A DNA stretch of 64,000 nt from Phoronis australis (lineage: Eukaryota > Animalia > Phoronida): NCBI GenBank assembly GCA_002633005.1, contig NMRA01000027.1:285265-349264 (forward strand), written 5' to 3'. The first letter of the stretch is position 1; the number at the start of each line of letters is the position of its first letter. Below the pieces are notes generated by a model. It ran no database searches. It was not told the DNA's origin and worked only from the letters and a program-made list of their open reading frames with translations. Positions 3,932 through 42,400 of this stretch are shown one piece after another. The position numbers and the translations under genes are program-made.

Positions 3932-5632
3932 CTACGCTTTCTCCTTTTTCAAGTTCATTGTTTGTCCTGCCTCGTACTCTTCCCCCAGAATAGTGGCAAT
4001 CTCCCCATGCATGAACGCCCAAGGCACGCTGGAGCCGAGAAGAGGACATCTCTTGCCGCTTGGGCAGTAAACCTCTGACCCGGCGCCTTGTCGGCGTATA
4101 CTTTCCTTCGAACACGGGAAACAGAACTTGTGGTCGGCCACTGAAGGGCACTGGACGAAATGTGTGTCCTCCAGTCTTTGTTGGCACAGAGTGCATTTTA
4201 AGGACTCACTCCCGACAGAGTCGGAACTCGGCTCGCGAGCGCGCGATCTGCTCGGAGGACTACCCACCGGCGTAGTTTTTCTGTCCGATGGACTTCCGGT
4301 CACAGGCAGATGATCGGTAACAGACATCAAGGCTGCCATAGGTGAGCGTCCGTGGTTGGCTTGGTCCGGTGGGCTTGAACCACTACCAGGAGAGACAGAT
4401 GAAGAGCTGATAGAAGCAGGTGCGGAGGGGAAGCCGGCTGAAGCAATCGTAAGCTTCAATGCTTCAGCTTGACTTTGCATCCACTGCTGCCTCTTATGTT
4501 GCTCGTCCACTGACCTCATGGACGTCCCAGCGTCAAGAGAATCAGGCGAAGCCTTACGTTTGCGACAGTCCATTACCCCGCGACTTGGGGGTTTGGGCAG
4601 GGGCGCTCGACTCATATTTACGACGGGGTTGGGCAGAACAGGAAACCGCTTGTCAAGATGGGGTACTGGCAAAAAGTCTTTGTTCACAGATTCTTTGAAA
4701 AATCGCACCGACTCCGGCAACATGTCACCAAGCAGCCTCCAATCACCGGACTCGAACTTAACTTCATATTCCAAGTATTTAAAACCAGAAGAAAGCCCTT
4801 TCCCAAAATCCTTTAGACAGTCATGGTACATTTGTTTTGCAACACCGGAAGCACTGTTATACACAGTTCCCGAACCCGTCGGGTATTCCACGAATATTTT
4901 CAATTCGAAATCCGAACCTGGTTTTGCCATTGCATCAAAAGCAAAAACGCGACCAACTAGGCCATGTTCCTTCTTAAAACGCACGTCAAACGGGACGCAC
5001 TTCGAAAGTGTCATAAGAGTCTCACGCACAATTTCCGGTTGGGAAGGTGACGACACGGTTTTTCTGTCGTCTGAAACTTCATTCACATCTTCGGTTTTCC
5101 TTCCAGGTTTCGAAGCAGCGTTCAAATGACCTACGGACTGAGTAAGTACTGGCGGTGCTCTTGTTTGACCGGCAGTGCTCAAAGCCAGACCCGCGGCTGG
5201 TTGGCCGCGTGATAGTACCCCATTCTGTAGCCTCCATTCCTCGTCCGGTCGGTGGAGCGGCAAATGTGTTCCATGTTGACGGAAGTCAGGCAAGGAGATG
5301 TCACGATGGCCACGAACATCGTACGGGTTTAACCTGTCGTTTGGCTTAAAATGAATTGGTTTTGACCCGGTCGTAACACCTGTAGTGGGCGGTACAGAGA
5401 TGGTGTGCTGTGGAGCCTTCCGAGCCTCGTGAAACCCATGCGCACGCTTCATCTGTCTGGCTGACTCAATCACCATTTCTATGCGGTCGGCACCCTCGTA
5501 GTTCACGCAACCGCGGCACACCGGTTCGGAAAAATCGTGCAGCATTGCCCACGGTGTACGCGGCAAGTCACACAAATAACAGTGCTGTCTCTGAGACCGT
5601 TGAGGAATCGGCCCAACACTTGGCTCAAACAT
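3932..5632 (-). CDS. IRF2BP: Interferon regulatory factor 2-binding protein (IRF2BP1/2/L family; Drosophila Pits-like), intronless, 566 aa
   Basis: N-terminal C4 zinc finger [35 protein letters not shown]; middle domain [17 protein letters not shown]...GFKYLEYE; NLS-like RKRKASP; C-terminal [32 protein letters not shown]. Start context GAAAATG, stop TAG. Confidence 0.97.
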
Positions 5633-14577: not shown

Positions 14578-17500
14578 CTCTGTTTTGGAGTTTCAAAATG
14601 AACCGCAGAATGCAGAGCAGGACGAGATCTGTCTGGAGAGAGGATGTTATGTGGACTGCGTGGTCTGTAGGGAGTTTCATCTGCAGCTAAAATGGCTTCA
14701 AATAAACTTTGGCCTGAAATAATATGAAAATACGTAGAAGGCTTTACACAACAGACTTTTACAAAAAACAGAATAATGGTCACAATAGAAATTGTTAACA
14801 AAACATCAAAAAATGTTTCTTTGTCTCCACGTTTCCGTAACTAGATTCATTCAGCATGCTACACCGCATCTCTAAATTCATCTACCTGCTCATATTTCAA
14901 GATGAGGCTTCGATTCATTGTAAAATAAAGCTTCACATGCTGATCTGGTGATCTGGTCTGGTGTGACAAAAATAAGCAAAAGATCATGAACAAATATTGA
15001 TCACAACATTGGCCAAATGCTAGGCAAGGGCTGTTGACATCATCCAATTAATTGAAATACCCAGCAATCTGAAGATCACCGATCACTGTACCATATCAAA
15101 TAATACCACACAATGACAAGCCAATAATATTGTCATCGTTAACATGTGAAGTCATCAGATCAATTACGGAAGTTATATATGACTATGGCAACTTCTACTG
15201 ATCAGATAAGAATCCCCCATCACGCTAGACTTTGGGATAGAACATAATCAACAAAATCGACCACGCATCACCCAACGTATGACTTAAGCATAAACAAATC
15301 CATGGTGTCTTTTGGCGATGTACCACAGGGCATGCTAATATTCTCAAAATGGACTACACATTACATAAAAAGTCAATTCAAGCAGTACGTGTCCATATAT
15401 TGCACCTGAATATTGCTTGGATCAATAAGAAAACTCCAACTTTTGTTATTGGCACTTTACTGCTATTTCCCTCATCACTATGAATGCAAACTGGTACTTA
15501 AGTAAGTTACAATACTGTGTAGCAACCAAAACAGTATACACAGCCACAAGATTAACTGTGACTGGGTTGGCTCAGCTTTACCACCAGGCTGTTATATTCA
15601 CCACTCACTGAGCCTAAGGGGGTAACATTGATTGTGTCATGTGTGTAGCATTGGCATAAGGGCTTACAGAAAACAAACCAATAATTGCTTATTCTGGGGT
15701 TAGCCTGCTGCCACTACTTCAACCAAAAATAATGTTTTTTACCTTTCTTAGTATTGTCTTTAGATGTTGGTAGAGGTGGCACTCGTCTAGGTGCGGGGGT
15801 GTCAAGGGGGGAGTCTTTCTTCTGCATTAAGTCAGACTTGATGTCTTGCCTACTGGCTTGCACCCGCTCAGACTCATATGAATGAGTATGTAGATCTGTC
15901 AAAGGCCTTTGATAAGGTTGATCACGACTATTGCCCTGGATGTTGGAGATGTCATTCAGAGCAACAGAATGTGGTGACCCAACATCGTGTGTTCCAGGGT
16001 GACTTGCTCTTACATGAAGTTGTGGCTTTTGTTGAGCAGCATACAACATTTTTGCCTAAACACAAAGTTAACCAAATTACTCATTTAAATAAGTACCTAA
16101 TAACTAGCTCAACTACACATAGTGTACCTAATTATCGGACGGAACCTAAATANTCTGGCGGTCATGTTCAGTCCTCGGCGGTCCTGTTTTCTGGGTGCGT
16201 CAGTCCCATTTTCTGGTGCGACGGTCCCATTTGATCCCCGGAGGTCCCGTTTTGGGTGAGTCAGTCCGATTATGAAGACCGGCGGTCATGTTGTTTCTCA
16301 CCCGTGAAACTGGTACTTAAGTAAGTTACAATACTGTGTAGCAACCAAAACAGTTTACACAACCACAAGATTAACTGTGACTGGGTTGGCTCAGCTTTAC
16401 CACCAGGCTGTTACATTCACCGCTCACTGAGCCTAAGGGGGATAACATTGATTGTGTCATGTGTGTAGCACTGGCATAAGGGATTACAAAAAACAAACCA
16501 ATAATTGCTTATTCTGGGGTTAGCCTGCTGCCTCTACTTCAACCAAAAATAATGTTTTTTACCTTTCTTGGTGTTGTCTTTAGATGTTGGTAGGGGTGGC
16601 ACTCGTCTAGGTGCGGGGGTGTCAAGCGGGGAGTCTTTCTTCTGCATTAAGTCAGACTTGATGTCTTGCCTACTGGCTTGCACCCGCTCAGACTCATATG
16701 AATGAGTTTGTAGATCTGTCAAAGGCCTTTGATAAGGTTGATCACGGCTATTGCCCTGGATGTTGGAGATGTCATTCAGAGCAACAGAATGTGGTGACCC
16801 AACATCGTGTGTTCCAGGGTGACTTGCTCTTACATGAAGTTGTGGCTTTTGTTGAGCAGCATACAACATTTTTGCCTAAACACAAAGTTAACCAAATTAC
16901 TCATTTAATTAAGTAACTCATAACTAGCTCAACTAAGCGCCAAACAGAACCAAAAAATTCTAAAATTGCCACTAGGGTCAAAGCAACAAGCAGACATAGA
17001 GGCAAAAGCAAAGACTTAAACACCAAATGCCTGGAATAAGATACTGCAATATGCATCCACATATGTTTACAGGGAGCACAAAAATTATCAAATTCAGGAA
17101 GTACCTGCCACTCTAGTTGTTGCTGCTGTAACTGTTCAATGTGCTGAAGTCTTCGATTGGTTAATTCAGAAAGTCTTTGTTCCAATTCAGACACTCTATC
17201 TGGTTGGATGGTAGGGTTCACCACAGGAAGCTTTGAAGTCTGTTCCAGGTGAGCAATTTTGCTCAGAATACTTTCAAGTTGAAGTTCAAGTTTAGTTTGA
17301 ATCTAAAAAAGAGACCAATAACTTTTTAAAGTATTAGTTTATCATTTTTCTGTCAGTTAACATTTGCACACACAAAAAAGCAAATTAGGTGTGATCTTTA
17401 CAAAAAAATGACACATTTTTTTCATAATTCATGAGACAGACCACATGGTGCAAGTAGGAGGCATTGTAATGTTGGCATTGTCAAAATAGCAAAGAATATG

Positions 17501-20500
17501 CCACGCCAGTACAACTGTCTAATATTTATGAAAAAACAACAAAACAATTTATTATTTTTCTGCTTATCGGATTTGTAGCTGAATGATATTGTAAATGGCA
17601 TGAGACATGTGGGGATGACCTCTGAAAAAAAAAAATTTAGGTGGGTCTTACTTCAATACGGAACTTGGTCAACAGAGATTATACAAGTCTGAAAACAAAA
17701 AACACCAGGCCAAGAAACTAGACCAGTCATACACAGTCAAACATTTCCTCTAAATTTCCAATATGCACAAATTAATTCAAAGATAACATTTGTCTAAAGG
17801 AATTTAAGGATGTTGCTTTTGCATTTTTAATTTTACATGCAGTCACTTACTTTCATTAAAGGTTGAGTTGCAGCCACAACCGCTGCAGTTGCCAGAGATG
17901 TGGTCGCAGATTGCACCTTCTCTGCAGTTTCTGTAGTTGTCTGCTGAGCTGGGATAGCTTCCCGAGTAATGAAGTTTGGCTTGACAACTCGTTTAGTTGG
18001 CACATTACTTTGGGAGCGTCTTCAAGTAAAATGTAAGTACATTTAAACTTGACTAGAACAATAGGCAAGAGTCATACGTAGTGTAAATTGAATGAATAGA
18101 CACTGTTATCATGACAAGTATAGACAACTGAATCAATAGACAATTGTATCATGGTAACTAGAGTCAACTGAATGGACACTTGTATCATGATAAGTAGAGT
18201 CAAATGAATGTCTAGACATGTGTATCATGATAAGTAGTCAACTGAATGAACTAACACTTGTATCATGACGAGCAGAGTCAACTAAATGAATGGACACTTG
18301 TATCATGGTAAGTAGAGTCAACTGAATGTCTAGACACTTGTATCATGGTAAGTAGAGTCAACTGAACGTCTAGACTCTTGTATCATGGTAAGTAGAGTTA
18401 ACTGAATGTCTAGACACTTGTATCCTGGTAAGTAGAGTCAAATGACTTCTAGACACTTGTATCATGGTAAGTAGAGTCAACTGAATGTCTAGACACTAGT
18501 ATTATGGTAAGTAGAGTCAACTGAACGTCTAGACATTTGTATCATGGTAAGTAGAATCAACTGACTGAATAGACACTTATATCATGACCAGTAGCATGAA
18601 TGAACAGACACTTTTCCAAATAATTCAAAGCCTTCTCTGGTTCCACTGGATTTACCCACAATGCCGCACCACTGCAAGATGTTAGTCCCAGGGTTATACA
18701 ATGCTGCAGTGCTAATTACAATCTTCAAAAAATTATTTTCACATTGCTCAATGAGTTGCAATGCACAGAGCGTGATTTATCACTCTTCAATGGCATCTAC
18801 ATTGATGAGTTTCCAAACAGGTCCATAGACTTACAAACGAGTGAGCTTGCTTTAAGGAATTCTGAGTACCTACAACATTGCTCATAGACACACCTTGCCA
18901 AATTTTCTTTTGCCGCCAGTCGTCTAGAGGAAAACCTTGAAACTGTCACATCACTTTCATCTGACTTGGACATATGTTGAGCACTATCAGGCAAACCTTG
19001 CTTGATCAAGGAGGACTACAAATTAAAGATAATGGAACAAGTTCAAAATGATAAAAAATGTGATGCAAAAACATGAATCTGGTCATCTGGAAACTTTTCA
19101 GATCAGATTTGCATTTTGGCATCAAGAGCTTCACTAAGATGAACGATAATGCCTATCGCCTTGTCTAGGATTATGGTACATATGGAATTCACCAAGAGAT
19201 CAAAGATTCAAATGCAGTTGCCACTTTTTGCCTGAAGCGTGTTTCTGCCACACAATTCACCTTCAACAAAGTAATTGACAAAAACAAAAACGGCACAAAA
19301 ACAAGTACTAAGAATAAAAATAGAACATTATGTTTGCGTTTTATTTTAAAGGGCAATTAAAACTGTGAATTAGTGATTTGAGCTTACATCTGACACCATT
19401 GAATATATTATTGTTATAGTTAACAACTCAATGTCTTCCATCACAAAAACCAACTTTTGATTGCCATAATTGGTCTCAAGTTGTTCTTTAATCAAAAAAA
19501 TAGTATCCTACACGAGTCTCACGTTTATGACATGGGAAAAACCTCTTGGAAATTTCGTCAAAATCTCGAGGCTTGCCAAGGATTTTGACGAAATTTCCAC
19601 GAAATTTCAGCCATGTCATAAATCTGAGAAGAGTGTAGGATTTGTTTTCTCACATGGATCGTAAAAACAATCTTTTTTGCCGAAAAACTCAACGTGTCTA
19701 AAACTTTCAAGCACATGTCACGACTTTTGTAAAAACACGCTTGCGCAATGTAAAGTAATTAATAAGGTTACTTTTTGCTAATAGTTTTATTTCAAGCTTA
19801 ATCTTTGAAGTTGTAATATTAAAACTTAAAAAATGTTAACTTTATAAATAACGGTCAGCAAAGCTTCCCGCGTGTGAGCACTGAATTGACCTTGAGATAG
19901 CACAGCTAGACAGTCTCGCCGCATTTCTTGAGTTGGAGCTTGTCTCTGTTTGAATAAAAGTGGATATGGAATTTGCTGCCGAAGATGGGCCCATTTAAAA
20001 AGTTGTTTGCATGTCCTTCCAACTGGAAGTACGTACAGTTGCAACACCCGATTTGTCAATCATAACCTTGTCACCTTCTCAAAATTCCAGCATTGTTTAG
20101 TTGGTGCGCGTTTGTTTGTGTTTTGCAGATGATAAAATGTAAGGCATATGGATGTCTACTTTGCACTACTTTGCACTACTTTGTGATTCGCCCACATAAT
20201 ATCAAAAAACTACGTACTCGATGTTATTAACCAGTTGTGTCATAACACATTCTAGGTCATGTGAGAAAAAATGATATCAGGCCTTCCTAAAAACTAAAAG
20301 TTGGTTTACTGCTTGAGAGTAAGACCATCAAGTAGGCTTCTCGTGGTGTATCATCTTATACCACATGGTCTCAAGGAATAACATTCTGTCAGTTCTTTAC
20401 AGTTCATAACACAGACATCACCCTTACGGTGCAATTGTAACAATCATTCACAGATATCACCTTTATAGTTCAACTGTAACACTCATTCACAGAAATGACC

Positions 20501-22858
20501 TTTACGGTACTACTGCTAAGCAAACAGAAAGGTTCGCTACCAGAGCTTGAAAAGACCAATGACAAAAAGAGGAAAATTTTCTAGGTGATGTATCGTTCCA
20601 CAAATAAATAGGCTTGTGTAATAGAAATATTTTTGCTGTATGAAGAAAGTCAAAATAATGAAATATTTTTGCTGTGTGAATAAAGTCAAAATCATGAAAA
20701 AAGAAGCGAAAAAAGAGGAAACTTGAAATCATAAAGAGGAAATCCAAGCCAAAAAAGAGGAAAATTCGAAGCCCTGATTTACAGTTGCAACCTAACAAAG
20801 TTTACAGTTTTAGTTCTTAAATTACTTTTATTAACAGTCCAATTTGTTTAGGCTGGCGACCATTACTTCAGAAATTTAATCAGCTGATCAAAACAGGTCT
20901 CTGACAAATCTGTTCTGAACTGGGTTCAAACTTGAAACTTTCTATAATCAGTAAAGACACTCTAATCCACAGAAGAAATGATTCCATTACATGTTAATTC
21001 ACTAATGAACGGTATTCATTTCCTATCCGCCTTAGAAGACAACACATTTGTCAAGTTGTGGTAAGTGTACCCAGAACTGTACCAATCCTGGAACATACAA
21101 AGAATTGAATATTCAAGAGGAAGGCCTTACCTTATTAGGCTGTACAGCGTGCAGTTCAGTGCTTTCATTAGAAGAGCTGTCCAGCAGAGAGGTCTGAGCG
21201 TGAACAGTTGTGATAGTGTCCACTACTGTGACTATATCTGATGCACTGGAATCAGGCTCACTTCCTGTAAAGCAAGACATCTGATGTATTCACTGGTGAC
21301 CAATCATAGATTAACAAAATACAAATCCATTGCTCAGTTAAGAATGTTTATGAAAATGCCTAACACAACTAACGATAAACACAACATTGTTGTTTAATCA
21401 TAGCCAAACAACAGTTAGAATGCACGTTCGCTGTCTTACATTAAATTTCAGTCTTTTCTTTACCTTTTTAATGGATAGTACGTTTTGCATATGTTTTACA
21501 TTTATTGTGAAAATATATTACACTTAAATATGACCGATGATTAAATGTTAATGAGAATTTATTTGGTACCTGATTTGCTGCCCTTCGTTGGCGATGTTTT
21601 ATAGACCAACTTTTCCCGCACACCTTCACCACTTTCATGTTTTTCGATGGTAGCCACTAACACATTCCTACCACTGGATGATGTTGCTTGTACCATTCCA
21701 GTGTCCTTCCGCCCATCTTGGACATTCTTACTAATTGGATGGAAAGTGGTCGAAGCTATGCCATTTTCCAATAGCCTCCTGGATTTATCATATTCTTGCT
21801 GTCTTAATTCACGTCTTTTGAATTCCTCCCAAGACTCTTTAACTAAAGGTGGCGCCACTTGTTCATCTACTACCGCCGAACTGTTACCATCCGAGATATC
21901 TTCAAAGGGTGACCTGATTTCTCTCACACGGCTAGAAGCAATGCGGACAGTTTTGTTTTTTCTGTTTAAGGAATTCAGGCCAGCTTTAAGGTGATTACCC
22001 GTGCCATCGTTATGGTTTGACTTAGCTGAAGTAGACTGTATGAGCACATCACTATCTGTAGAACTGTTGGGGTTAATGTTTGATGCTACAGGTGACACAC
22101 CAGTACTAGAGGGGCTAGGGTGCACAAAAGACCTAGACGTTTCTTCAGGTATACTCTCCAGATCTCTCCCATGTTTTATAGTCTTGCCACTGTTTCTGTC
22201 AACAACGGCTTCATCGTGTGTGGTACACGCTTCTCTTGGGTTTGTTTCAAGAGCTGTATCTGTAATTCTTAACACCTCTTCTAACTCAAGGCCGCCTATA
22301 AAAGTCAGACAAAATAAAGTGCCACAATGTCTCTTTCACACACGTGCATAAATATGTTTGAATAAATGTTTATATTACATAGGTCTAAACAAGAAAACAA
22401 ATGAGCGCTTTTGCCAAAAATCTCATATTTATAACACAAATAATAATACTATACACAAGGTCAGAACTTTTAGTTACTTTGCTCAGAACATCATCAGTGG
22501 GTAACTACAGTGTAATCTTCTGGTTATGGCCAACACAACATGTGTATTGTAACAGGAAAACTTTCTCCATTTCGAGAGAATTTTCTGTTCTTCGAAGGTT
22601 CGATTTGAGTATATTCTACTTGATAATGGATATTGCTCTCAAACGTCAAGCTAGTAAGGACAGTGTCGAGTTAAATGCTTCTACACCAAGTGTTTCCCAT
22701 TTAAAACTTCAGTGTCTATCACTATTACCAGGAAGAGTATTGCTTAGTATCGCATTTCTTTTTATTTGTTGATTGAACGAGTGTTTGGTCTCCTGCTGGG
22801 TAAACCCCACCCATGTGGCAGTTTTTAAGTCGCTATTTGTGACCTTAGTTGGGGTCAT
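14578..22858 (-). CDS. KIAA0586: TALPID3/KIAA0586 centriole/ciliogenesis protein, N-terminal part (about 640 aa traced; 3' end unresolved)
   Basis: Phase-consistent GT-AG exons: 22858-22729 (tentative start MTPTKV...), 22295-21570, 21264-21131, 19015-18894, 18019-17851, 17302-17105, 16875-16563 (or its copy 16055-15743), 14713-14578. TALPID3-like motifs: SATTSLATAAVVAATQPLMK-IQTKLELQLESILSKI, RLQHIEQLQQQQLEWQ, SPLDTPAPRRVPP, SLFEAIL. A possible short terminal exon lies at 14503-14452. Confidence 0.82.
15489..16935. repeat. Tandem near-identical duplication (about 625 bp, offset about 820) containing one TALPID3 coding exon
   Basis: 15489-16115 matches 16308-16935. The 313-nt exon copies differ at 6 sites. 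A single N at 16153 lies between the copies. Confidence 0.9.
18095..18612. repeat. About 40-bp minisatellite
   Basis: TAGACACTTGTATCATGGTAAGTAGAGTCAACTGAATGTC, about 13 copies, no spacers. Confidence 0.92.
19505..19641. repeat. Palindromic end of a non-autonomous DNA element
   Basis: ATCCTACAC...TTTATGACATGG ... CCATGTCATAAA...GTGTAGGAT, with an inner GAAATTTCGTCAAAATC / GATTTTGACGAAATTTC palindrome. Confidence 0.6.
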
Positions 22859-23499
22859 CAGTAAGAAAACTGTTATTGTTGGCAATTCACTACTTATAAA
22901 CTTCCCAAGGAAAATGACACTTTGAACATACAGACTAATAAACTAGGGCAAACCAATTCTCATGTCATGTTGGCAAGTGATTTTATTATCAATCTGTTAA
23001 AAGAGAATGAGAGACACAGTTGTTTGGAGAATTTTACATCTCTGTGTCTTTGAATGTTTTTTCTCCAACAATTACTTTTCCCACTCGTTTCTGCTTCACT
23101 AATTGCCATCATTTTCTATAAATTTAATACGTGTTCTAACATTGATCCGGTTTCCAGGATCTATTTTTCTAATTATGTGATTATTTACTCAAATTTTCTC
23201 TTGTTTTAAGAGAACATTAAAAAAGTAAAAGTTCCCAATTTTTTTTACAGAAATGTCATTAATGACGATAGTTTGAGAAAGATGTACGATGAATTTTTGT
23301 CATACACTGTATTTTCTCACGTGGATACAAGTTTGAATGGAGATCTTTGAATTGTATTTACTAGAGTACTCTGTTCATGCTTGTTTTTAAACAGTGCATT
23401 TGATTCTAAGACTTGAACCGTTAAATACTTGATTATTCAAAAAAATCATAATTGTGTCGATTGCGGTACACTGTCGATAAACTGATGCACGGATATTCC

Positions 23500-24038
23500 T
23501 GTTGTAGATGTGCTTCCGGTGAATTATATGAGCCTCTGTTAGCTACTCGCTAATGGGCAATTGCCTATTAGCTGAATGGTTAGCACGCTTGCCGGTTTTA
23601 TGGGGGTCGCGGGTTCGATCCCCGGGTCGGGTAATCTCGGCTATTACTACAAATGGCGTAGTCGGCAAACGGATGATCTACCGATGAAGCACTGCCAACT
23701 AGTACCCACGAACCTCGGGACAGTGCGCGTGGAAGGTTCCAGGAGTCAAGGACCTGTATGAGAGACAACCTTGTGTTCACCTGTGTTGTGGTGGTAAAGG
23801 TACCAAGGGACGTTGATGACCTGTATGCGAGACATCCTGGTGTTCACCTTCCTGTCGCGTGCCCGTTCCGTAGGAAAGGGGGGAATGTTGTAGATGTGCT
23901 TCCGGTGAATTATATGAGCCTCTGTTAGCTACTCGCTAACGGGCAATTGCCTATTAGCTGAATGGTTAGCATGCTTTCCGGTTTTAATGGGGGTCGCGGG
24001 TTCGATCCCCAGGTCGGGTAATCTCGGCTATTACTACA
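23500..24038 (+). mobile_element. Complete non-autonomous mini LTR retrotransposon (TRIM) with tRNA-like sequence in both LTRs (Helenus/TRIMp3-like)
   Basis: LTR1 23500-23651 and LTR2 23886-24038 (TG...CA; 4 substitutions and 1 indel). PBS TGGCGTAGTCGGCA at 23654-23667. PPT AGGAAAGGGGGGAA at 23872-23885. TSD TTCC at 23496-23499 and 24039-24042. A box TAGCTGAATGG and B box GGTTCGATCCC in each LTR. Confidence 0.92.
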
Positions 24039-25449
24039 TTCCTGACCAGGTTTGAGCCCATATGCCCTTTGGGTGTACCTGATGACGTGCCCAGTAGACT
24101 TAGTGTAATTTAAGTGGTGACATATGAAACAGAAACCCCAAGTGCAATTGTAAGAACAGTCATGTTCATGTCTAACAATACATGGATATTTCTGACCAAG
24201 TTTGAGCCTGTGCCCATTGGGTGCACCTGATGATAAAAAGTGTGCCTTTTTCTTTTTTCATGGCGCAAAGGCGCCGTCCAGGAATACCCGTGCTGATGAT
24301 CCTATCATCAGTGTATCACATTCACAGACATCGATCGGGCATCAATAAAATTGCAAAACGATTCGGAAAGAACCTCCGCCTCCGGCAGTGACAGTGACCC
24401 TAAAGTTTATTTCCGAAAAAGCCCACATAGGGGATTTATCTAGGTGGGGGCCCTTTCCCAAATTCCCGGTACTACCATCATCAGCTGCCTCGTCATCCAT
24501 AGTTCCACATGTAGTCTACTGGATGTCTGTCTGAAAAACAATCACATGTATGTTCAAAACTTCCGCCAAACTGTTATGGACCAGGAATTTAAGGTCTGCT
24601 CTAATAAGTATCAAAGTAGAAAAATAAGGTATTACTTTAAATATTAAGAGAGTTGTAGTCATTTTGTAGGTTTTAAATAACAATATTAGTAATTTAATTG
24701 TAGTTAGCTTTAAATATCTATTATTTTAATGACAGTTATTAGTATTTTTTAAAATAATTTATAAATTTCTGTTACCTAGTATTTTGAGCGAGCGTCATCT
24801 TTTGAGTGTAATTTTTTAAGTTGAAAATAAATCTTTTGTATTTTTCTATGATTTAATAGAATATTACACAATTTCATACCGTGAAATTCTTCTGATTAAA
24901 TATTTTTGGTGTATATTTTGCTACATTTCCAATGGTTAACCGCAATATCATGTGTTTGTGTGCATCATAGTATTACATTCTGTCAGCGACTAAGTTCATT
25001 TCATTTTTGTCGTACATCCGCTGAGGAACTGAACGTGATTGTGGGTGAGCTAGGACAATGTCTTTTTTACGCATTTCTGACAATTTCCATTCTCGCACGT
25101 AAATTCTTTGACTGTTGTAAACATGTAAACACTAAAACTAGACAAATGGCTCCAGTCGAATATAGCGGTCCGGCGGTCACTCTTGACCACCATCTGTAGC
25201 CAGACACTTGGTTCTGCCTCTGGCTCTGCCGCTCTGGTTGTGTTGTTAGCCAGCCAGCTAGCTGTATCATGTATGAAGACTATCCTCAAAATACAGCTAG
25301 GTACCACTGTGTGTTTTTCTTCCATAAACCCCGAAAATCACACAGCCAGGGTAGTTGTGCTTGTCAACTCAGCTTGAAACCTGTATCAACATGTAGAGCT
25401 AAGACCGGATGGAGTGCATGCAAAATCTGGGAGTCAATTGACACTCACC

Positions 25450-27480
25450 TTTCCTGTTACAACCATTTAAGTGAAAATCAATACAACAAACGTCATTGTC
25501 TTGCGTCATTCTCGACCTTTTGTAACAATGAAAAGTGTGTTGTCGTTTTGAAAACAGTACGCTCGTGTCACGCGCACGCGCCATTCCTTAATTATTTGCG
25601 ACAACTTCGCAGCAGCAAAATTTGTTCTGAAATTCATTTTTTCGGCATCGAAATTCTAAAACCAGTTCCAATAATTTGTTGTGGCATGTATGCAACCTTG
25701 TGAAAGAACAACATTTAATTGAATAATCGGAGAAAAAAGAAACTGGCCAATAGGTGACGCAATATTTCATGGCACTGAAAGCCGACGCAGATCGCTCCAC
25801 AACTTTAGCAACATAATAATGGCAGAACGCCATTTTTTCCAACACCGTTAAATAATTTAGTTTACTCAAAGAAGATTGTAGTTTTTAATGACACTAATTT
25901 TGTGTCAGATTTTATCTTACCACTTTTTTACTCACATCGGAACAAAGCTGTATATTTAGTATACAGCTTTGTACCAAGGCTACCAGGCTGTATGCACACA
26001 GCACAAGCGTGCTTCTTTCAGTCGGTTCTGATCGTCCCCAACAATACTCTTTCTTTATGTAATACTTAGAAGTATGACACTGGGGACTAGAAGTTTCACG
26101 GGTGCTTCACTTCAGCCGTCCATTTCAACCGCAAATCTGAATAAATTAACACAAAATAGGGATTCAACAAACCGTGAGCAATTGTTGTTTCTCCAGATGA
26201 TATTTACACCGCTCTGGTCCAGCGAGTTCACAACAAATTCGCAATGAAAACACAAAATTCTTCCCAAATGGTTGATGCATAGGAACTCCTGTATGACAGG
26301 TCATGTGAGGTAGCCATTTGACATGGAAGGAAGGTCACAACTGTAACTCCACACTTATCCCCAAAATCTCCAAACCATTTCGTAACCTCCTGTGATGATC
26401 CGGCAAATGCTATTATCCATGTGAAACTCAGTGGGTAATTCTGTACTTTTTTCTGTACTTTACCTACAACCAACTCGCGTGATTTGTCTTAGTTCCAAAT
26501 GTCACCCAATCAGCCAAATGAATGCTCAGTTCACGAATTCACAAAAATGCAAATGGCGGAATGACATTCGAAAGATAAGACGTTGAATCATTGAGTGAAT
26601 AAATTCTTTCGAAAGGCTTGATTTCCATGCAGTCATTTTCGCCGTATTATATGCGCAGATAAATGTGTTTAAGCGATCGCAATTTCGACGTATGAAATTT
26701 GATGTCCAATTCGAGTGTGACTCAGGACTTGGAATTTTCCTCTTTTAAGAGGTAGAGGATTTCCTCTTTTTTGGTTTCGATCTCCTCTTTTAATATTCAG
26801 TTTCCTCTCTTTCATCATTATTTTAGCTTTATTCATGCAAAAATGTTTAATTCAGTAAAATTTACATCACAAAAAGTATTTTTATCACAAAGCTTATTCA
26901 CACCTGGAAATTTTTCCTCTTTTGTTATTCGTCGTTGCAAGCTTTGGTGACAATTTCAACGTACGAAGTTCCAACCTGCCAGCTAGCCTTGGTGCAAAAT
27001 TGTATGCTAAATAATATACAGTTTTGCACCAATGTGGGTGAAAAATTGCCAAATAAAATGTGACACAAAATTAGCGTCATTAAAAATTACACTCTCATTT
27101 GACTAAACTAATTTATTTACCAGTGTTAGAAAAATTGGCATTCTACAGTTATTCTGCTACAAAAATTGTGGAACAATCCTTTGCGTCGGCTTTGCGGTGC
27201 CATGAAATATAGATCAACTATTGGCCAGTTTCTTTTTTCACTGCTTCTTCAATCAACTGTTCTTATTCCATGAGGTTGTGTACATGAAACATCAAATTAT
27301 TGGAATTGGTTTCATTTCATTTGTAGTATTTTGAAACCCGCTAAACCAAATTTCACAACAAGCTTTGCTGCTGTGAAGCTGTCATCATCTCGTGAGAGAT
27401 GCAACAAAAAATTAAGCGCACTGTATTCCAATGGACAACTGACTTTTCTTTGTTAAAAAGCCAGAGAATTATGCTTGAAA
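25450..27480. repeat. Diverged inverted repeat pair (about 25450-25984 and 26984-27480) around the TALPID3/TIMM9 intergenic core
   Basis: The reverse complement of 25741-25984 aligns by eye with 26984-27235 (TAGCCTTGGT..., GACACAAAATTAG, GCGTCGGCTTT, GTGCCATGAAATAT, TATTGGCCAGTT). A third partial copy lies at about 27525-27650. Confidence 0.75.
25990..26720. promoter_or_regulatory. Putative bidirectional promoter region for KIAA0586 (-) and TIMM9 (+)
   Basis: Main non-repeat, CpG-containing sequence between two divergent genes; YY1-like AAATGGCGG at 26551. Both ATG exons are preceded by acceptors, so their 5'UTR exons must lie in the intergenic interval. TSSs were not located. Confidence 0.5.
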
Positions 27481-27687
27481 ATTTAGTTTATTAGTTTGTA
27501 TTTCACTTAAGAATGAGTGCGCTGATGTGGGTAAAAAATGGCCTGACACATAATCAGTGAAAATTGCACTCTTCTTTGAGTAAACTAAATTATTTACGGT
27601 GTTAGAAAAATTGGCATTCTGCCGCTATTCTGCAACTAAAATTGTGAATTGGTTAACCCATTAAATTCTCATTCTTTTCAGGAAGAA

Positions 27688-33462: not shown

Positions 33463-36400
33463 CTACTGATGTCTGATTTGTGTCAAGCGAAGGTCTCCAT
33501 CCACCGTCAACTTGTCAATGGTGTGCAGACTCTTGATGCGGTGGTTATACTCTATGAAATGCCTGTTGTTCACTGCAACCTGCAATGAAAAACCCAAAAC
33601 AAGGTCCCAATATTCCAACATGTTGCCAATCATTTTTTGATTGTCAGCCTGTTACCAGCCATATTATGTCAACCCAACTTACTCTGAGCCAGTCAGCAGC
33701 CATATGACACGTCATCCTAAGTACACAGGTGTGTATACAAAGCAAAGTGACATGGCTGAAGAGGTATGTTCATAAATTCGGACTTCAAAGACTGAGAAAC
33801 TTTCTCATCAAAATCAACTCACAAGCAATACACATACAAACTTCACAGATCCAATTGTAAGATATCAGTATCCCTTGACACAAAATAAAATATAATACAA
33901 TTGCACTGTTTTAAATCAGCGCATCGATATGATATCAATAAGAATTATTAGTCTTCATACACACCATATGATGGCCACATCATATGACCTATAATTAAGT
34001 AGGAAAAGATCTCTACCCCAACTGGATTTCAAACCTGTGACATTCTGCTAACCCTGCAGATGCTCTAGTCCAGTCAACTGAGCTATCGGACCACAGGTTG
34101 ATTACAGGAATCTAAACAGACTTAATATAAAGCATCTTACCAAAATTTTAGATTGCAGATACATGTTTATAATTGTGTTATTACAAATCAACAGATTGAT
34201 ATCATAAACACATGTACCGATAGCTCAGTGGGTTAGAGCGTCTGTACGGTCATCAGAAAGTCGAGGGTTCTAACTCCAGTCGAAGCAGATATCTTTACAG
34301 ACTTGAATATAGGTCACGTGATGTGGCCAACATCTGGCGTGAATGATAATTCTTATTTATAGATTATAAAAATTATCATCACATTATGTCACAAGCTTAG
34401 CAGCATGATACCTTGAAGCAGTTGGCTTCGCACAAGAAGATCATATCAAAGTTTCCATTGGGTACGAAAGGAAAGTAGCTGGCATGCCTTTCTTCCGATC
34501 CCCAGCGTCTGCCAATCTCGGAGTTGCGCACAATAACGTGACGGTCCGAGCCAAAGCTGAAGCGTACGTCAAAGTGAAAAGCGATCTCACTACTTCTGGA
34601 ACATCTCAGGTTGATGGTGAACCTGATGAGAAAAATATTCATTACACCATACTCAATATTCATTATACCATACGCAATATTCATAATACCATACTAAATA
34701 TTCATTGAACCACACTCAATATTCATTGAACCACACTCAATATTCATTGAACCACACTCAATATTCATTGTACCACACTCAATATTCATTGTACCACACT
34801 CAATATTCATTATACCATACTCCATATTTATTATACCATACTCAATATTCATTATATCATAAACAAAACTCAAGATGTGGACGTTAAGCTGCACATAGAT
34901 ACTTAAAAGCGACATTTCTGTGATATCAGAGGTTGACGTGTTCCCAAACGGTCGATAGGTTAATGACCATTGAGTAATGGTGGTGTCACACTCCACGTGC
35001 AACAGTTAACTGTGACATCAATGACTTGTAGACAAGGGAGTACAGAGCTTAACGTCTAGAATGAAGTGATCGCGCACAATAGTTAAGTAGTAAGACATGG
35101 ATTTTTATGCAGCAAAGTGTTAAATTTTCGAATACAAACATTAAGGATGTAAAAAGCTGGCCACACACTGCTTACACGAATGCTCTATTTTCTACACACG
35201 TATGATATCATTAAAAAGTGCATGAGCCAAAAGAATCATTTCACGTCTCCTTTGGTAAAGAGCAAGAGTGGGAGAGTAAGGTAAGGTAACACTGAGATTG
35301 GCTGATCGTTACCGAAATGTAAACAATGTGCATACTTTTTAAGATAATTATTGTGATGATTATGTTCTTGTCTTTTGTTTTCTTTTGGCATATCTGCTCA
35401 ATATTATGTTTTGCTTAAGTAGGTCATTGTTTTATTAAAAGCCTGGATATAATGATTTGCTTTCTGGACTAAATATTTGTACTTAATGTATTTTTTATTT
35501 GTGTAGCCGTAAAAAAATGAGATGGGTGTTCACAAAGACGAGGCACTTGTAAGGAAGTAGGGCAGTAGGCAGAATATGGCAGTTTCAAAATGAAAGTCTG
35601 TAACTTTCAGGGGTGGACAGTAACTGACCAACTCCCATGATAAATGCCTTGCCTTCTGTCTGTCACTCAAATGTTCCTCTCACTCAAATGTTCCTGTCTA
35701 TCACTCAAATGTTACTGTCTGACTCAAGGTCCAAGGCCGTGAACACTTAGAGAAGGTGAAGAAATATTTGAAGAAATCAGAAAGTGACTATTGCTAAATA
35801 GGAGTGAGATGGTTATGCTACGTAGGGGGAAACTATTAAGCCACTTTTCAAAAGTCTTTGGCGTTTTATTTTTTTACATAGAGTGCATTCCAGCTGATTT
35901 TTCTTAAAGCCATCTCAGTGCCGTGATTGACAGGCAATGGTGATAAAATTAAACTTGGTGTAACAAGTTTGAAAATAGAGCATAAAATTACACTTGTATT
36001 ACCAAAGAGGACGACTGACAAAAGCGATAACACGCATAAAGAGAGCGGTCGTGTTGTGGGTCATTTTGACATGCTACCATATAAAAGGTGTCTTGCACCT
36101 TTTTGGTTGATTTCTATCAAATGAAAACAAAATTCTTGGAAAATAATTCTTCAAACCAGAAGTGTGATGCTGTAATCATGTCACATAATACAAACACTAT
36201 GTGTTACTGGCTGAATCCCTGTTCTTTTGGTTTTATTACCTGTCTCTGGCATTTTTGCTCTGACAGTGGCAAATTGTTAACGTACCATTAATTTCATTTC
36301 TTCTTACATTTGCTTCACCACTAAAGCAAACTTGGTGTGCTTGTAGTTGTAGTGACTTACTAATACTTAATCGAGCACACTAGTAGACGGGAAGTGTATA

Positions 36401-39400
36401 GTGATCAAGCAAATATGTGACGTGAACCATTTACCTCTGTACATTAGGATTCACTATTCCACTAATGTAAACCATGCGACCAGGATAGAAACCTCCAGAA
36501 ATCATGCTTTCGTGAGGAACTGGCTAAAAGTAATAATAAAACAGTAAAACACAGGTGGCATGGTGTTAATAACATGATTATGATAACATCACTTGTTTTA
36601 ACAAATAACATGATTAGTGTTAACAAAAAGACTTATGTTAAAAACATCACTTATGTCAACATCACTTGTGTAAACAACAACACTTATGCTAACAACAACA
36701 CTTATGTTAACAACAACACTTATGTTGACATCAATATCTTTAACTAACAACATGACTTGTGCTAATATCATGGTGACAAGTTACCATAGTTTTAAGGCTA
36801 GCTCAACTGAAAGCTGCCTCAAGCACATTGCAGTTACAACAGAGTGTGCCTGCCTAAATTGCCTTAGAGCATTTCCAACGCACACTTCTGAAGTAAACTC
36901 AAGCAGAAGCCAGCAGCAAGGCAGTGTCCCATGAAAATCAAATGGGTCATATTTAAACATGAAAACATACTTCCAAAAAGTTATATCATCACAACACATC
37001 ATTTCGTTTCACTCTGACTGGATTTTCTGTGTGTAAAATAAAATAGCTGCATTCCTTTTTAATACTTACTGGGTTGTACAGTGGGCTAGGCAGACCACTC
37101 GGCTGCACCATACCTGCAGGTGGGCCACTAGGGGGCGCGTGTGCAGGTGGGTAGCCTGAAGGAGCCTGGAATAGATCAATACACACAGAGCTTACAAACT
37201 TGGGACTCATTTAATAATGTAAGTTGATGACACCTAACATGACCAATGGCCATATTAATTGAAACCTGACAACATTTCAATACTTAAAGGACCAATAGAC
37301 TCGAGCCCTCTGTCAAGAATCAGTTACTGACAAAAGCAGTCTCGTCTTGTTCCTTACTGAGGTTAGAAATGATTGGTCGACTTGACACATTGTTATAGTT
37401 ACAGACCACACCCATTCAGTTACTTGGGTTAGGTAGTTATTTATGTTGCTTGTCACAATCGACTGGTTTCAGCCCGGCACTCTGGCAATACAGCCCTCAG
37501 AGAAATTTCAGACGATTTATTGTAAAACCATTTTCACTTCAAACAAAGTATAAGAATACAATGATATTGCTTTGGATGGACAAGGACGAATGTGAGGACA
37601 AGTGATGGTTGATACCGGCTTCACCATTCACTGTAATATTGTATGCAGAGATGGTATGCTTAATAATGGCTTCACCAAACACTGCAATATTGCATGAAAA
37701 AATCCGCAAGCACTAACCTATTTACTCGCCCCTCGGAGTGGAACATTAAAATTTTTCGTAAGTTGTCAGTAGTATTTTGATTTCGTAGAAAGCATTAAGA
37801 TACAACTTAACAGGTAGATAAAATTTATCAAAAATTTTTCAGAATGTCTGGAGAGAGTGTTCATTATTTGTCGTGCAGATTAACAATTCAAGAATAGCCT
37901 AAGGAGTGTGCTCTACACACCATTGGTGCACAAAAATTATTAAAGATGCATTGTGATGCCAATCTGAACATGGAGACTATTTCTCAGAAATAAGTGATGT
38001 AGGCATTGACCTTATTAACCTTACGGTAACTGCATGTATATACCATAATAAACAAAATAAGACTTCCTAGATTGTAAAAACATATGGATAAGTTGATCCT
38101 TCTAAGAAATTTGATGACGTCAAAGTTATGGGTCTAAAACACACTATACAACATCTTAAATAGTGAAAATGTAAGAAGTTTTCATCTACCTGAAATCTGA
38201 TGGAGGTCAGGTTGACATTGCCATCCACCATCAGGGTTGTCACTCGTTCCATCGGCAGGCGATGACGAAACTCAGTGAAATGAACCCCATTAATGGCAAC
38301 CTGAAACAAACCACTGATAAATATATGTTACCTGAATTTTCAAATATAAACCCTCTGATAAATATATATGTTACCTGAATTTTCAAATACAAACCACTGA
38401 TAAATATATATGTTACATGAACTTTCAAATACAAACCATTGATAAATATATATGTTACTTGAATTTTCAAATACAAACCACTGATAAATATATATGTTAC
38501 TTGAATTTTCAAATACAAACCCTCTGTAAAGATTAAGATAAAATCTACCAACTGGCAAATGCCATTGAGTAGTCAGTTATACATATAACCTACACACATA
38601 TTCCTTTTAACAGATAAAATGGTAATTGAGCCACTCACGACTTCAAACAAAAATGTTTCAACAAACTGCTATCCCAGAGGAATGAAAAGTGTCTGAAGAA
38701 GATGGCAATCAAAAATAAATTAAATACAGGAAGTTGACCTCTTTTAAGACACTGAGTTGAGATTTTCACAAAATTACTTGAAAACTGTCTTCACAAAATG
38801 GTTTCTTGCAGTTTTCCTCAGAGTTCAAGATTTTGAGAGTGAGCCAACAATGAGGGCAATAAATAACAATATGTCTCGGTACTTGCCTGGGATTAATACT
38901 CATATAATGTAGTAAGGATGCTGAAAACACTTCAGTGAGATTAAATTAGATAACCCGTGAGCGTGTGCTTTGTGTGTGTGTGTGTGTGTGTGCTTTGTGT
39001 GTGTGTGCGTGTGCTGTGTGCGAACATGCGTGCATAGAGTTCATGTACATTAGAAAAGTCATCAAAATTTATTTACTCAATATGTAAGGAGGACCTTCAT
39101 TACTGAGGTGCAGAGAACACTACTGCCACCAAAATATACAATATTGTGTGTTTGGACTTTTTTAATACAATGAACTCTTATCAAAATTAGTGATGCTACA
39201 ACACAACTTCACACAGCATGTGACACCAGACATACATTGTTGGCATTCTCACAACACTATCCCTAACAAAGGTTTCATCCTTTGACCTACATCAAGGAGT
39301 GGAGAATAAACAAACCTTGTAGCAGTCACTTTGCACTAAGATGATCATTTCTAACTGCATTCCATGCTGAAACGGGAATCCACCATGGCGCTCCTCTGAA

Positions 39401-42400
39401 CCCCAGCTGTTATATTGTCTTGAGTTACGTACCACCGTGTTCAACCCCTCAAACCGTGGATTAAAGTGAAACGCAATGTCAGCCGTGGAGCCAGAACCAC
39501 ACACAAGATTCACGGAGAACCTACAAGACAAAGACAATGTAGTCCAGGCCAGCTGTATACAGACACGCGCACACTGTCATAAATCCCAGCAGATGTCTCC
39601 CTCAATTGAGATATATTTTCTTCAGTACTGGCCAAGTTTTTATTTCCATATGGCCCATGCTCAGCACAATGCCTACCCTCAATTTATATCAATAAAGTTT
39701 TCTTTGGAAGTGTCCATCTGACACTAATCTTAGCTCCCAAAACATGACATTCTATGGACGCTTTACCGCACTCCCACTTTAATAATGTCTACCATAAACA
39801 TTGCTCCCTGGGCACTGAAGCCCCAACGATCATTCTGGTAAGCACCTAACCCTGAATTTTCAAAATGTTCCGTTCCTTAACATCCATGCTCAGGTAATAT
39901 TGCCAACCCCAGATTATTTAGGTTCTCCATAGATACCTTCAGTGATTCTGTCCACAAGAGGGCGCTGCCATCAAGTCAGATATAGTTTGGAGATTGCGTT
40001 AGCTGTTGTGGAGAGTAACAGCATTGAATAAATTCAATTGTTCTGAATAGCTTAAATAAAGGTGAAAAATAACTCCCTTGGTACTGCAGCAGGTTAATAG
40101 AGATAAGTATTTTACTAACTATTAATTATTATGCGATGGATTCAAGGGGATTCGGAGGAGAAACCAGATACATTGACGTCACTTGCCCTCTAACCGTAAC
40201 ATATCGGCCACCCTTGCTCCTAGCACAACTGCAGACATGGTTTTTGGATTTTTGGCGTGAATTGTACGAAGATTTGTGTGGTAAACTCGCAGACGATCTT
40301 GTACGCTCCATACTTTCCCAGACATTTTATTTACAATGCACTAATTTTGTTTTGAGTGAGGAACGACCTTCCGGAACAATCCGAAGTTAACCTCATGATT
40401 GAGTGCCATAACTAGACAAATTATCACAAATGTACCTGGCTGGATTCATTACATTCCAACACAAACCCAACACTTAATTTTCATGATTCTTTAGAAATGG
40501 TAAAGTAATCTGATTTTATTTAATTTTCTAACGTAAAGCTCTTATGAATACACTTATTTTGTTGGGCTCGACTCAAAAAAATGATGGTCAATATTCATAC
40601 AAGCTGATCACATTTATTGAAATCATGAGATATATGATTTGTTGTGCAGACTCATTTTCAATCAAGAACAACATCGAAAAGTATTTCTGGCGTAAGATGA
40701 CTAATTACCTTCAGCAACCACCCTCTAATGATTTGGGCTGGGCAGTTTAGACAGATCATAACAGTTATCTATCCGAGAACACATTATCAACACTTTTCAA
40801 AATGTCAAGAGTGAACGCAATAAAAAATAACTGCGCCAACCATACGTTTGTCTCATTGGATAAAATTTGCTTTTATATTTTGCATAAAACTAATAAAAAA
40901 ATAAATTTTGGTCTACCGGGTAAGTGTTGTATCCGTTTGATAAATACAAAAAATTGTGAATCCTCGTCTAAGGCCATTGTTCGCGTTCATCATTGCATAT
41001 AGACAGACTCTAAGTATCTTAAAAATTACCTTATTGTGAAAAATGGTACGATTTGTACTTAATAGATGGAAATGTAATTGGTGCAACAGGCATCCAGGAA
41101 ATGTTTGTTGTTGCAAGAAGACACTACTTCATCCCTCACTAGTTAGGGAGACACCACTTTATCCCTCACTAGTTAGTGAGACACTATTTTATCCCTCACT
41201 TGTTAGGGAGACATCACAAACCACAGAGCTTAAATCTCAGTTAGTGAGTCTTGGCTGGCAGACGACTTGTATCTGATGCAGCGCCACCAAGACGATTAGT
41301 CTCCTATCCCATTTAATCACCTAGGGCATAAACCTGGACAAATAATTTTGTCCTAGTACGATGTTGCGCAACAACTGTCCATAAACAGGGAATGAACCCA
41401 ACCGAAGTCAAGCAAGAAAAAGAGTTCACTTACAAGTTTCAAAAAGTAATCAGCACAACACCATGGCAGTTTGTTGTACGCAAACTTTCATAACAAAAGC
41501 CAAGTCAGCTGGCCTATTGCGTATACTTGACATGGGGTTTTCTAATGTTTCAACAATACAACTGGTTTCAAAAATGTTAAAGTACAATGTATTTAACCTA
41601 CCTGCCTGCCCCATAAGGTACAGAACCATTAACGAAGATCATCAACCCATGCTGCACAGGGCCCTGAATAGGCCCTTCATATGGCACTCGCTGCGGGGAA
41701 GAGCAGATCACTAAGATATCGTACAATCAATGTATAAAATAACAGAACACACTTAAAAATGTATTGTCTTACAAAAATAACAAATTGGGGTTTTGAAAAG
41801 TATGCACAAAAGACAATGACAAAACAACAATTGTGTTTGTATTCGCCACCAAACAGCTGTTAACTTCCTTAACTACGAAATTTTCATCAGGTTAATTTCA
41901 TTCAAACTGCAAAGACTTTTGAGATTTGGTGTTATATGAACCAGTAGGTAGTACTGCTTACATATTGTTTTCTACTGTTACCGGAGACCAATGAGACCAA
42001 TATACTGAGACCAATAAACTGAGACCAATACACTGAGACCAATATACTGAGACCAATATACTGAGACCAATACACTGAGACCAATACACTGAGACCAATA
42101 TACTGAGACCAATATACTGAGACCAATATACTGAGACCAATACACTGAGACCAATATACTGAGACCATCCCACATCTGACTTTGTAACAAGAATACACAT
42201 GTATGGTCAGACATGCAGAAACTCTGGCATGTATACAATGAGGACATGTTAACACACTGGGCATAAACAGCTCGATCAACTTGATGCTCAAATGTTTTAT
42301 TGGGGTTTTCATGTCCAGATTCCCTACCATTTCAGATTTTAATAGCTTATGAAAGAGTTCACTCTGGTACTTCGCTGCTTTAATTTGGTGAATTGGTTGT

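Follow-up and report, generated by a model that had tools for sequence, protein, structure and literature searches.

The DNA stretch analysed here, 64,000 nt long and called the window below, with all coordinates counted from its first letter, carries a protein-less mini LTR retrotransposon of the Helenus type, which is probably transcribed by Pol III from the boxes in its own LTRs and mobilised by the enzymes of a tRNA-Ser-primed Gypsy element. The element occurs once in the window and many times elsewhere, and the predicted hairpin that its LTRs share with Helenus elements of bivalves, ribbon worms and fishes would point to one common origin of these families.

Structure and dispersal of the element

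The features collected in Table 1 had largely been proposed by an earlier sequence-only reading, and the two LTRs, the 234-bp interior, the PBS, the PPT, the TTCC TSD and the A and B boxes were all recovered when they were measured again. The LTRs align with 148 identities, four substitutions and one indel, and the PBS begins 2 nt past the end of LTR1. Both LTRs carry the A box TAGCTGAATGG and the B box GGTTCGATCCC at an A-to-B spacing of 43-44 nt, and a pair at such spacing was found only in these two LTRs on either strand of the 64 kb. The longest Met-initiated ORF of the element has 61 codons. The element's only two T4 runs occupy equivalent positions between the A and B boxes of the two LTRs; a TATA-like TATAT lies at 23525-23529 in LTR1, and no AATAAA was found in the LTR sequence. 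The region of the 32-bp interior repeat folds no better than its shuffles (z +1.58). At this locus alone a 5-bp TSD (ATTCC, with the LTR ending in TAC) could also be read; other copies leave the reference exactly after 23651, so the CA end and the 4-bp TSD were kept, TTCC being read on both sides of one insertion only.

Table 1. Positions of the element, its parts and its host repeat in the window
Feature	Position	Strand	Basis or remark
5' TSD, TTCC	23496-23499	+	Sequence
Whole element	23500-24038	+	539 bp, LTR-interior-LTR
LTR1, TG...CA, 152 bp	23500-23651	+	Contig loose ends exactly behind 23651
Hairpin module of LTR1	23539-23572	+	Arm a TTAGC 23539-23543; a' GCTAA 23549-23553; palindrome 23555-23566; a'' TTAGC 23568-23572
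tRNA-like block of LTR1, without cloverleaf	23562-23633	+	A and B boxes at tRNA spacing
A box of LTR1	23569-23579	+	Fits TRGCY..YGG given in PMC10886601
T4 run of LTR1, between boxes	23596-23599	+	Candidate leaky Pol III stop
B box of LTR1	23612-23622	+	
PBS, 14 nt complementary to the 3' end of tRNA-Ser	23654-23667	+	Shared with a human tRNA-Ser template (PMC3299991)
Interior 32-bp repeat, copy 1	23751-23782	+	
Interior 32-bp repeat, copy 2	23818-23849	+	91%
PPT, 14-nt purine run directly before LTR2	23872-23885	+	Sequence
LTR2, 153 bp	23886-24038	+	Contig loose ends exactly before 23886
Hairpin module of LTR2	23925-23958	+	
A box of LTR2	from 23955	+	
T4 run of LTR2	23982-23985	+	
B box of LTR2	from 23999	+	
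3' TSD, TTCC	24039-24042	+	Sequence
Host repeat interrupted by the element	24043-24255	.	Multi-copy tandem unit of ~150-165 bp; joints going back 143-166, high depth
Paralogous empty site	24184-24200		In the next unit of the host repeat

The tRNA-sized block had been described as tRNA-derived, of which one part stood: the boxes lie at tRNA spacing, but ARAGORN and Rfam (E up to 1) each returned nothing in the block, and its fold was no better than shuffles (z -0.05) and formed no cloverleaf. The block is therefore a promoter-like relic and not a tRNA gene, and the label "tRNA-derived" refers to its A and B boxes and its likeness to Helenus LTRs. Likewise, the insertion had been called recent, which holds in a relative sense only, the LTR divergence being 2.6% with a 95% interval of 0.7-6.7%. 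At 23972, 23977 and 23986 the state of LTR1 was found in other copies, and these differences look like changes that followed insertion. The copy is young but not fresh.

Dispersal was assessed with four DNA runs of this organism, all from one sample that is possibly the window's own, by mapping their contigs onto 23000-24700. Contigs running into unrelated sequence exactly behind 23651 numbered 21, 22, 17 and 29 per run and those with unrelated sequence exactly before 23886 numbered 29, 25, 15 and 25, the agreement among the sequences beyond these two points being 0.38-0.40. With 15-29 different flanks per exact terminus per run, the element is thus a dispersed multi-copy family with separate insertion sites and the same TG and CA ends, as had been supposed, and not a single-copy locus. 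Two tRNA-derived SINEs inserted near each other might in principle mimic a pair of LTRs, each repeat being SINE-sized and provided with A and B boxes, but the ends are TG...CA, the PBS and PPT abut the repeats, an A-rich tail is lacking, a single TSD surrounds the whole unit, and elsewhere, too, the LTR is found joined to the interior, which is itself high-copy. This explanation is already refuted by full-structure copies at other sites and deserves practically no credence.

Summed depth in run X1, which is not copy number, was 15,000-27,000 over the interior and up to 167,000 over the LTR, with about 30 at the nearest unique flank, and implies a large family. Its members vary: 413 of the 2179 pieces mapped over the whole stretch in that run were at least 99% alike and 478 were under 90%, and some members lack 76 bases (23781-23856) or 181 bases of the interior. 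No variant in the A or B box of LTR1 was found among the variant rows listed for the DNA runs (40 of 115). RNA reads from three other samples also depart from the reference at 23651 (62, 52 and 134 reads). Moreover, run X5, whose kind is uncertain (RNA is a guess and it may be DNA), yielded one 416-nt contig over 23603-24019, corresponding to one LTR-plus-interior period (386) and 30 further letters, with eight differences, so that a subfamily almost identical to the element exists as a complete unit. This contig has the form that assemblers give to a closed ring, and it fits a linear LTR-interior-LTR RNA, tandem arrays or circles alike. In run X3, loose ends at 23601 and 23625, inside the tRNA-like block, lead into other sequence that bears a B box; related families or SINEs with a similar head are probably present in the same genome.

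Helenus affinity, primer and transcription

The sequence-only reading had named a tRNA-bearing animal group with 4-bp TSDs, Helenus (TRIMp3), as already reported, and this proved accurate, both as to the existence of the paper (Kojima 2024, Biology 13:119, PMC10886601) and as to its content. Excerpts of that paper describe a TRIM of less than 1000 bp with a tRNA-like segment in the LTR and, in animals, a 4-bp TSD; its members range from 311 to 1263 bp, box A follows TRGCY and YGG and box B GGTTC, and most of the tRNA-like blocks are non-functional as tRNA. With Helenus the element has in common the boxes in both LTRs, a PBS that follows the 5' LTR and is directed to a tRNA 3' end, a PPT before the 3' LTR and the 4-bp TSD, together with a length of 539 bp, two LTRs, no coding capacity and an interspersed multi-copy distribution. 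By structure it is of the Helenus kind, and that kind itself has been published since 2024.

Among the catalogued families excerpted from the same source, the element (152-153/234/539) comes near to the mussel family Helenus-2_MyGa (144/226/514) and to Helenus-2_LimFor (141/251/533), both of which are directed to tRNA-Ser. Its PBS, TGGCGTAGTCGGCA, is nevertheless not catalogued, the Ser PBSs in the catalogue being TGGCGCTGCG and TGGCGACGAGG. It also differs in having no T-rich tract after the tRNA block, as many catalogued LTRs do, the only T4 of each LTR lying between the boxes. The three Helenus families given for Lingula anatina are without the hairpin module and have a different primer. 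The PBS and six other motifs gave no match in the whole supplement of PMC10886601 and, judged against that supplement, the family looks uncatalogued, in line with the earlier suggestion of a possibly undescribed family. The element adds to Helenus a young, intact and abundant family whose primer is unlisted and whose host lineage lies beyond the species in the catalogue.

Other small elements resemble it in part. Cassandra of plants and Ajax of nemerteans are, like the element, non-coding LTR elements with an internal Pol III promoter in each LTR (as excerpted from PMC10886601), but these are 5S-derived, while the promoter of the element is of type 2 (A and B box) and gave no Rfam 5S match at E up to 1. 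The TSD of Ajax is given there as 5 bp, in contrast to 4 bp here. The biv-TRIM described by Satovic et al. (2019, PMC6934838) is likewise a small lophotrochozoan TRIM; in the portion of that article at hand it is without a canonical PBS and carries a hairpin in its interior, whereas the element has a canonical PBS and its hairpin in the LTR. SINE2 elements have a single tRNA head, a simple-repeat tail and a TSD of variable length, and no LTR, PBS or PPT, in contrast to the LTR-PBS-PPT-LTR order seen here.

With regard to the helper, the PBS is identical over its 14 nt to the start of a human tRNA-Ser template given in PMC3299991, and the same 12-mer serves as PBS in two sponge GAG-POL elements and in one fly errantivirus, which are Gypsy-type elements, in the part of the supplements of PMC13524379 that was available. 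For the PBSs of animal Helenus elements, only Gypsy elements are stated to resemble them (Kojima 2024, PMC10886601, in excerpt). A tRNA-Ser-primed Gypsy helper is therefore likely for the element.

At promoters of the tRNA type, the Pol III start lies some 10 nt upstream of the A box. In the mechanism proposed here, TFIIIC would bind the boxes of LTR1 and Pol III would start at that distance from the A box, which falls at the loop of the long hairpin described below (~23559-23562). Partial read-through of the T4 run of LTR1 and a stop at that of LTR2 would yield an RNA of ~430 nt with a terminal redundancy (R) of ~40 nt, enough for strand transfer; as a counterpoint, the T4 run within LTR1 could halt Pol III before the PBS. 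The particle of the helper would then package the RNA, tRNA-Ser would prime at the PBS and the PPT would prime the plus strand, and the integrase would leave the 4-bp duplication. Of this RNA, only the 3' end would contain the complete hairpin module, placed at the U3/R border; its role there would be in packaging, end formation or strand transfer. The model is borrowed from Cassandra, whose RNA extends from a start in the 5' LTR to an end in the 3' LTR and has a short redundancy, and the Pol III promoter of Helenus is itself expected but unvalidated (both according to excerpts of PMC10886601).

Transcription was followed in run X5 and in three raw, stranded RNA runs labelled as the same species (library selection unstated), all mapped onto 21400-26200. 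The exon at 21561-22295 had reads on one strand only in two of the three RNA runs, which fixed the direction of the libraries. On this basis, in the three stranded runs the LTR1 bin was antisense-rich (121/72, 106/64 and 201/55) and the interior mildly sense-rich (47/35, 47/31 and 37/14), and there was no place on the element where many molecules begin or end. In RNA depth the element resembled an unrelated repeat located 1.5 kb from it. The pattern is in line with copies embedded in host transcripts and offers no sign of a separate Pol III RNA; an RNA that is short and non-adenylated might be missing from such libraries. It is conceivable, if improbable, that the element is an ordinary Pol II TRIM whose tRNA-like boxes were left by an ancient SINE insertion and whose copies arose from transcripts made by Pol II or by read-through. 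The lack of a start peak and the presence of reads on both strands would agree with that origin, as would the T4 run inside LTR1 and the TATAT, which could serve Pol II. On the other hand, both boxes match the consensus although the rest of the tRNA shape is gone, they have been kept across Helenus families of several phyla (PMC10886601, in excerpt), and the LTR sequence shows no AATAAA, all of which speaks against an ordinary Pol II TRIM.

The hairpin module of the LTRs

Each LTR holds a module with the layout YTAGC-loop-GCTAR-palindrome-TTAGC, which straddles the expected Pol III start; the loop has 5 nt in LTR1. The arm a'' is the start of the A box, and a' can pair with either a or a''. 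In LTR1 the long hairpin is predicted at -15.9 kcal/mol vs -8.5 for two short hairpins, and in LTR2 at -11.9 kcal/mol vs -8.4; in a comparison that gave -14.5 kcal/mol for the long hairpin of LTR1, none of 200 shuffles of the module was as stable.

Inspected by eye, the catalogued Helenus LTRs excerpted from PMC10886601 show the module in 13 of the 14 from ostariophysans and 33 of the 51 from bivalves; all three nemertean and both coelacanth LTRs have it as well, and the two from sturgeon and paddlefish carry it with altered letters. Examples, likewise by eye, are the oyster families Helenus-1_CGi and Helenus-2_CVi, the nemertean Helenus-1_LiLo, the coelacanth LTR1_LCh and the zebrafish LTR-11_DR. 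The words "hairpin" and "palindrom" are absent from the main text of that paper, and no prior description of the module, or of Helenus in phoronids, was found in the open-access literature.

A search pattern built from the window and part of the catalogued Helenus consensuses (PMC10886601) matched the window twice and 100 shuffles not at all. It matched six loci in metagenomes (L001-L006), and none in viral contigs or in GTDB genomes. Two of the six are Helenus LTRs with the same module layout as the window LTR, namely L002, with a PPT and a TG start, and L006, with A and B boxes; by eye both are like catalogued oyster families and do not look like new hosts. The folds of these two are by themselves unexceptional (z -1.0 to -2.1). 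In the module alignment the stems hold with one-sided and two-sided changes, its four rows being too few for statistics. The remaining four loci (L001, L003, L004 and L005) were set aside as one unrelated hairpin family with no B box or LTR; they represent one conserved non-coding locus with two strong hairpins in a row, possibly a phage or bacterial terminator. A scan of the viral contigs for the PBS junction gave one chance match inside a long ORF, which was discarded.

The module being common to four or five phyla argues for a single lineage among aquatic animals, and it is put forward tentatively, as a possibility rather short of an even chance, that the hairpin-bearing Helenus elements of bivalves, ribbon worms, coelacanth, sturgeons, ostariophysans and the present host form one lineage and not separate SINE captures; this lineage would either predate the protostome-deuterostome split or have spread horizontally between aquatic animals. 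The same proposal holds that the three-arm hairpin at the U3/R border would be a two-state RNA signal for the ending, packaging or strand transfer of a Pol III transcript by unrelated Gypsy helpers. A shared module challenges the published view, since separate births of Helenus have been argued for molluscs, fishes, wasps and fungi (Kojima 2024, PMC10886601, in excerpt).

A module that arose convergently, by fold-back duplications of the tRNA 5' end in each phylum separately, with a birth of its own for this family as the excerpts of PMC10886601 propose per lineage, is a fair rival to common descent, although we regard it as rather doubtful. A fold-back would produce just what arm a' is, a complement to the start of the A box, and the pattern caught the unrelated hairpin family in 4 of the 6 metagenome matches. 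Moreover, in a tally by eye of the excerpted catalogue the module was absent from 18 of 51 bivalve LTRs, all three of Lingula, the ctenophore family and all 11 wasp LTRs viewed of 40. Against convergence, three arms recur in the same order and spacing, one and the same position in them is often variable or unpaired, and pairing survives changes in stem letters and loop lengths (all partly by eye in the excerpted LTRs). The alignment between the window LTR and L002 extends upstream of the module (TTATATG, CCT). Finally, five 9-mers from the 3' end of the module had 40 matches in the supplement of PMC10886601, the first of each standing after the fungal entries (29 among the matches listed).

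If the host is a phoronid, which one gene tree permits without establishing it, the element would bring to Helenus a seventh animal phylum, six being given in the excerpts of PMC10886601. The module is a concrete cis-element candidate for the terminal redundancy and helper-particle entry of Pol III-driven TRIMs. Its sequence and structure together can also serve to detect Helenus in any genome; of its 6 metagenome matches, 2 were Helenus LTRs. The zebrafish family LTR-11_DR, in which the module was seen by eye in the excerpted catalogue, has thousands of copies and makes the proposed cis-element role testable in a model animal.

Insertion site and neighbouring genes

The element interrupts a host repeat, and an empty-site paralog had been placed at about 24183. 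It was borne out with an onset at 24184, where the left flank is alike in 10 of 12 letters and the right flank in 15 of 16; further to the left the agreement drops to 9 of 30. An empty allele, seen as a joint from 23499 to 24043, was not found among the joints listed for the DNA runs, possibly from the window's own sample (15 of 84), or for the RNA runs and X5 (15 of 43). The host tandem repeat reached a depth of ~15,000 in run X1 and may be a satellite or a MITE-internal array. A hammerhead reading of the motif CTGATGA in this repeat was dropped, no Rfam hit having been obtained. Further along, 25247-25982 and 26978-27510 belong to a multi-copy MITE-like element with sharp ends of RNA reads at 25247 and 25982 and an inverted paralog at 73%.

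The gene in question is TALPID3 (15714-22335, minus strand), with Pfam support at 15717-16055 (E 1.5e-7) and weaker support at 16904-17302. The insertion had been placed 5' of its coding start, which the exon layout did not confirm: the nearest co-oriented exon opens at a splice acceptor at 22295, has no Met for 199 codons, its first Met being codon 200, and is without Pfam support, and one frame-compatible candidate first exon lies beyond the element, at 24500-24476. Seven candidate ATG-to-donor exons were counted within 22295-26200, on both sides of the element, and no splice joint of a first TALPID3 exon was located in the RNA runs over 21400-26200. Searching with a fragment of TALPID3 likewise returned no match. 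From this exon layout, the element may lie upstream of TALPID3 or in its intron 1. No DNA contig of the four runs mapped to 24311-24538, a segment that contains the candidate first exon. Within the gene, 629 bp that include a TALPID3 exon occur twice, alike at 97% (15488-16115 and 16307-16935), and an N stands between the two; overlapping haplotypes in the assembly are the probable cause, a tandem exon duplication being the alternative.

An intronless IRF2BP gene lies just downstream of TALPID3 (3932-5632, minus strand). Its protein is 51-53% identical to its best matches, including those of Lingula (Lingula anatina, 51%), Capitella and Haliotis. In the tree it stood with Lingula and one further protein on a long branch inside the protostomes (SH-aLRT 84; 90/91 in a second tree with 17 of 41 rows), and it thus appears weakly grouped with Lingula. 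Topology tests rejected a placement with bivalves (p-AU 0.025) and did not reject a grouping with the nemertean Tubulanus (p-AU 0.108). On this one gene, the host is best taken as a lophophorate distinct from Lingula anatina. A turbot protein with both Pfam families, probably a fused model, hints at an old gene neighbourhood. Galectin exons (PF00337) were also present in the window, at 34397-39576 on the minus strand.
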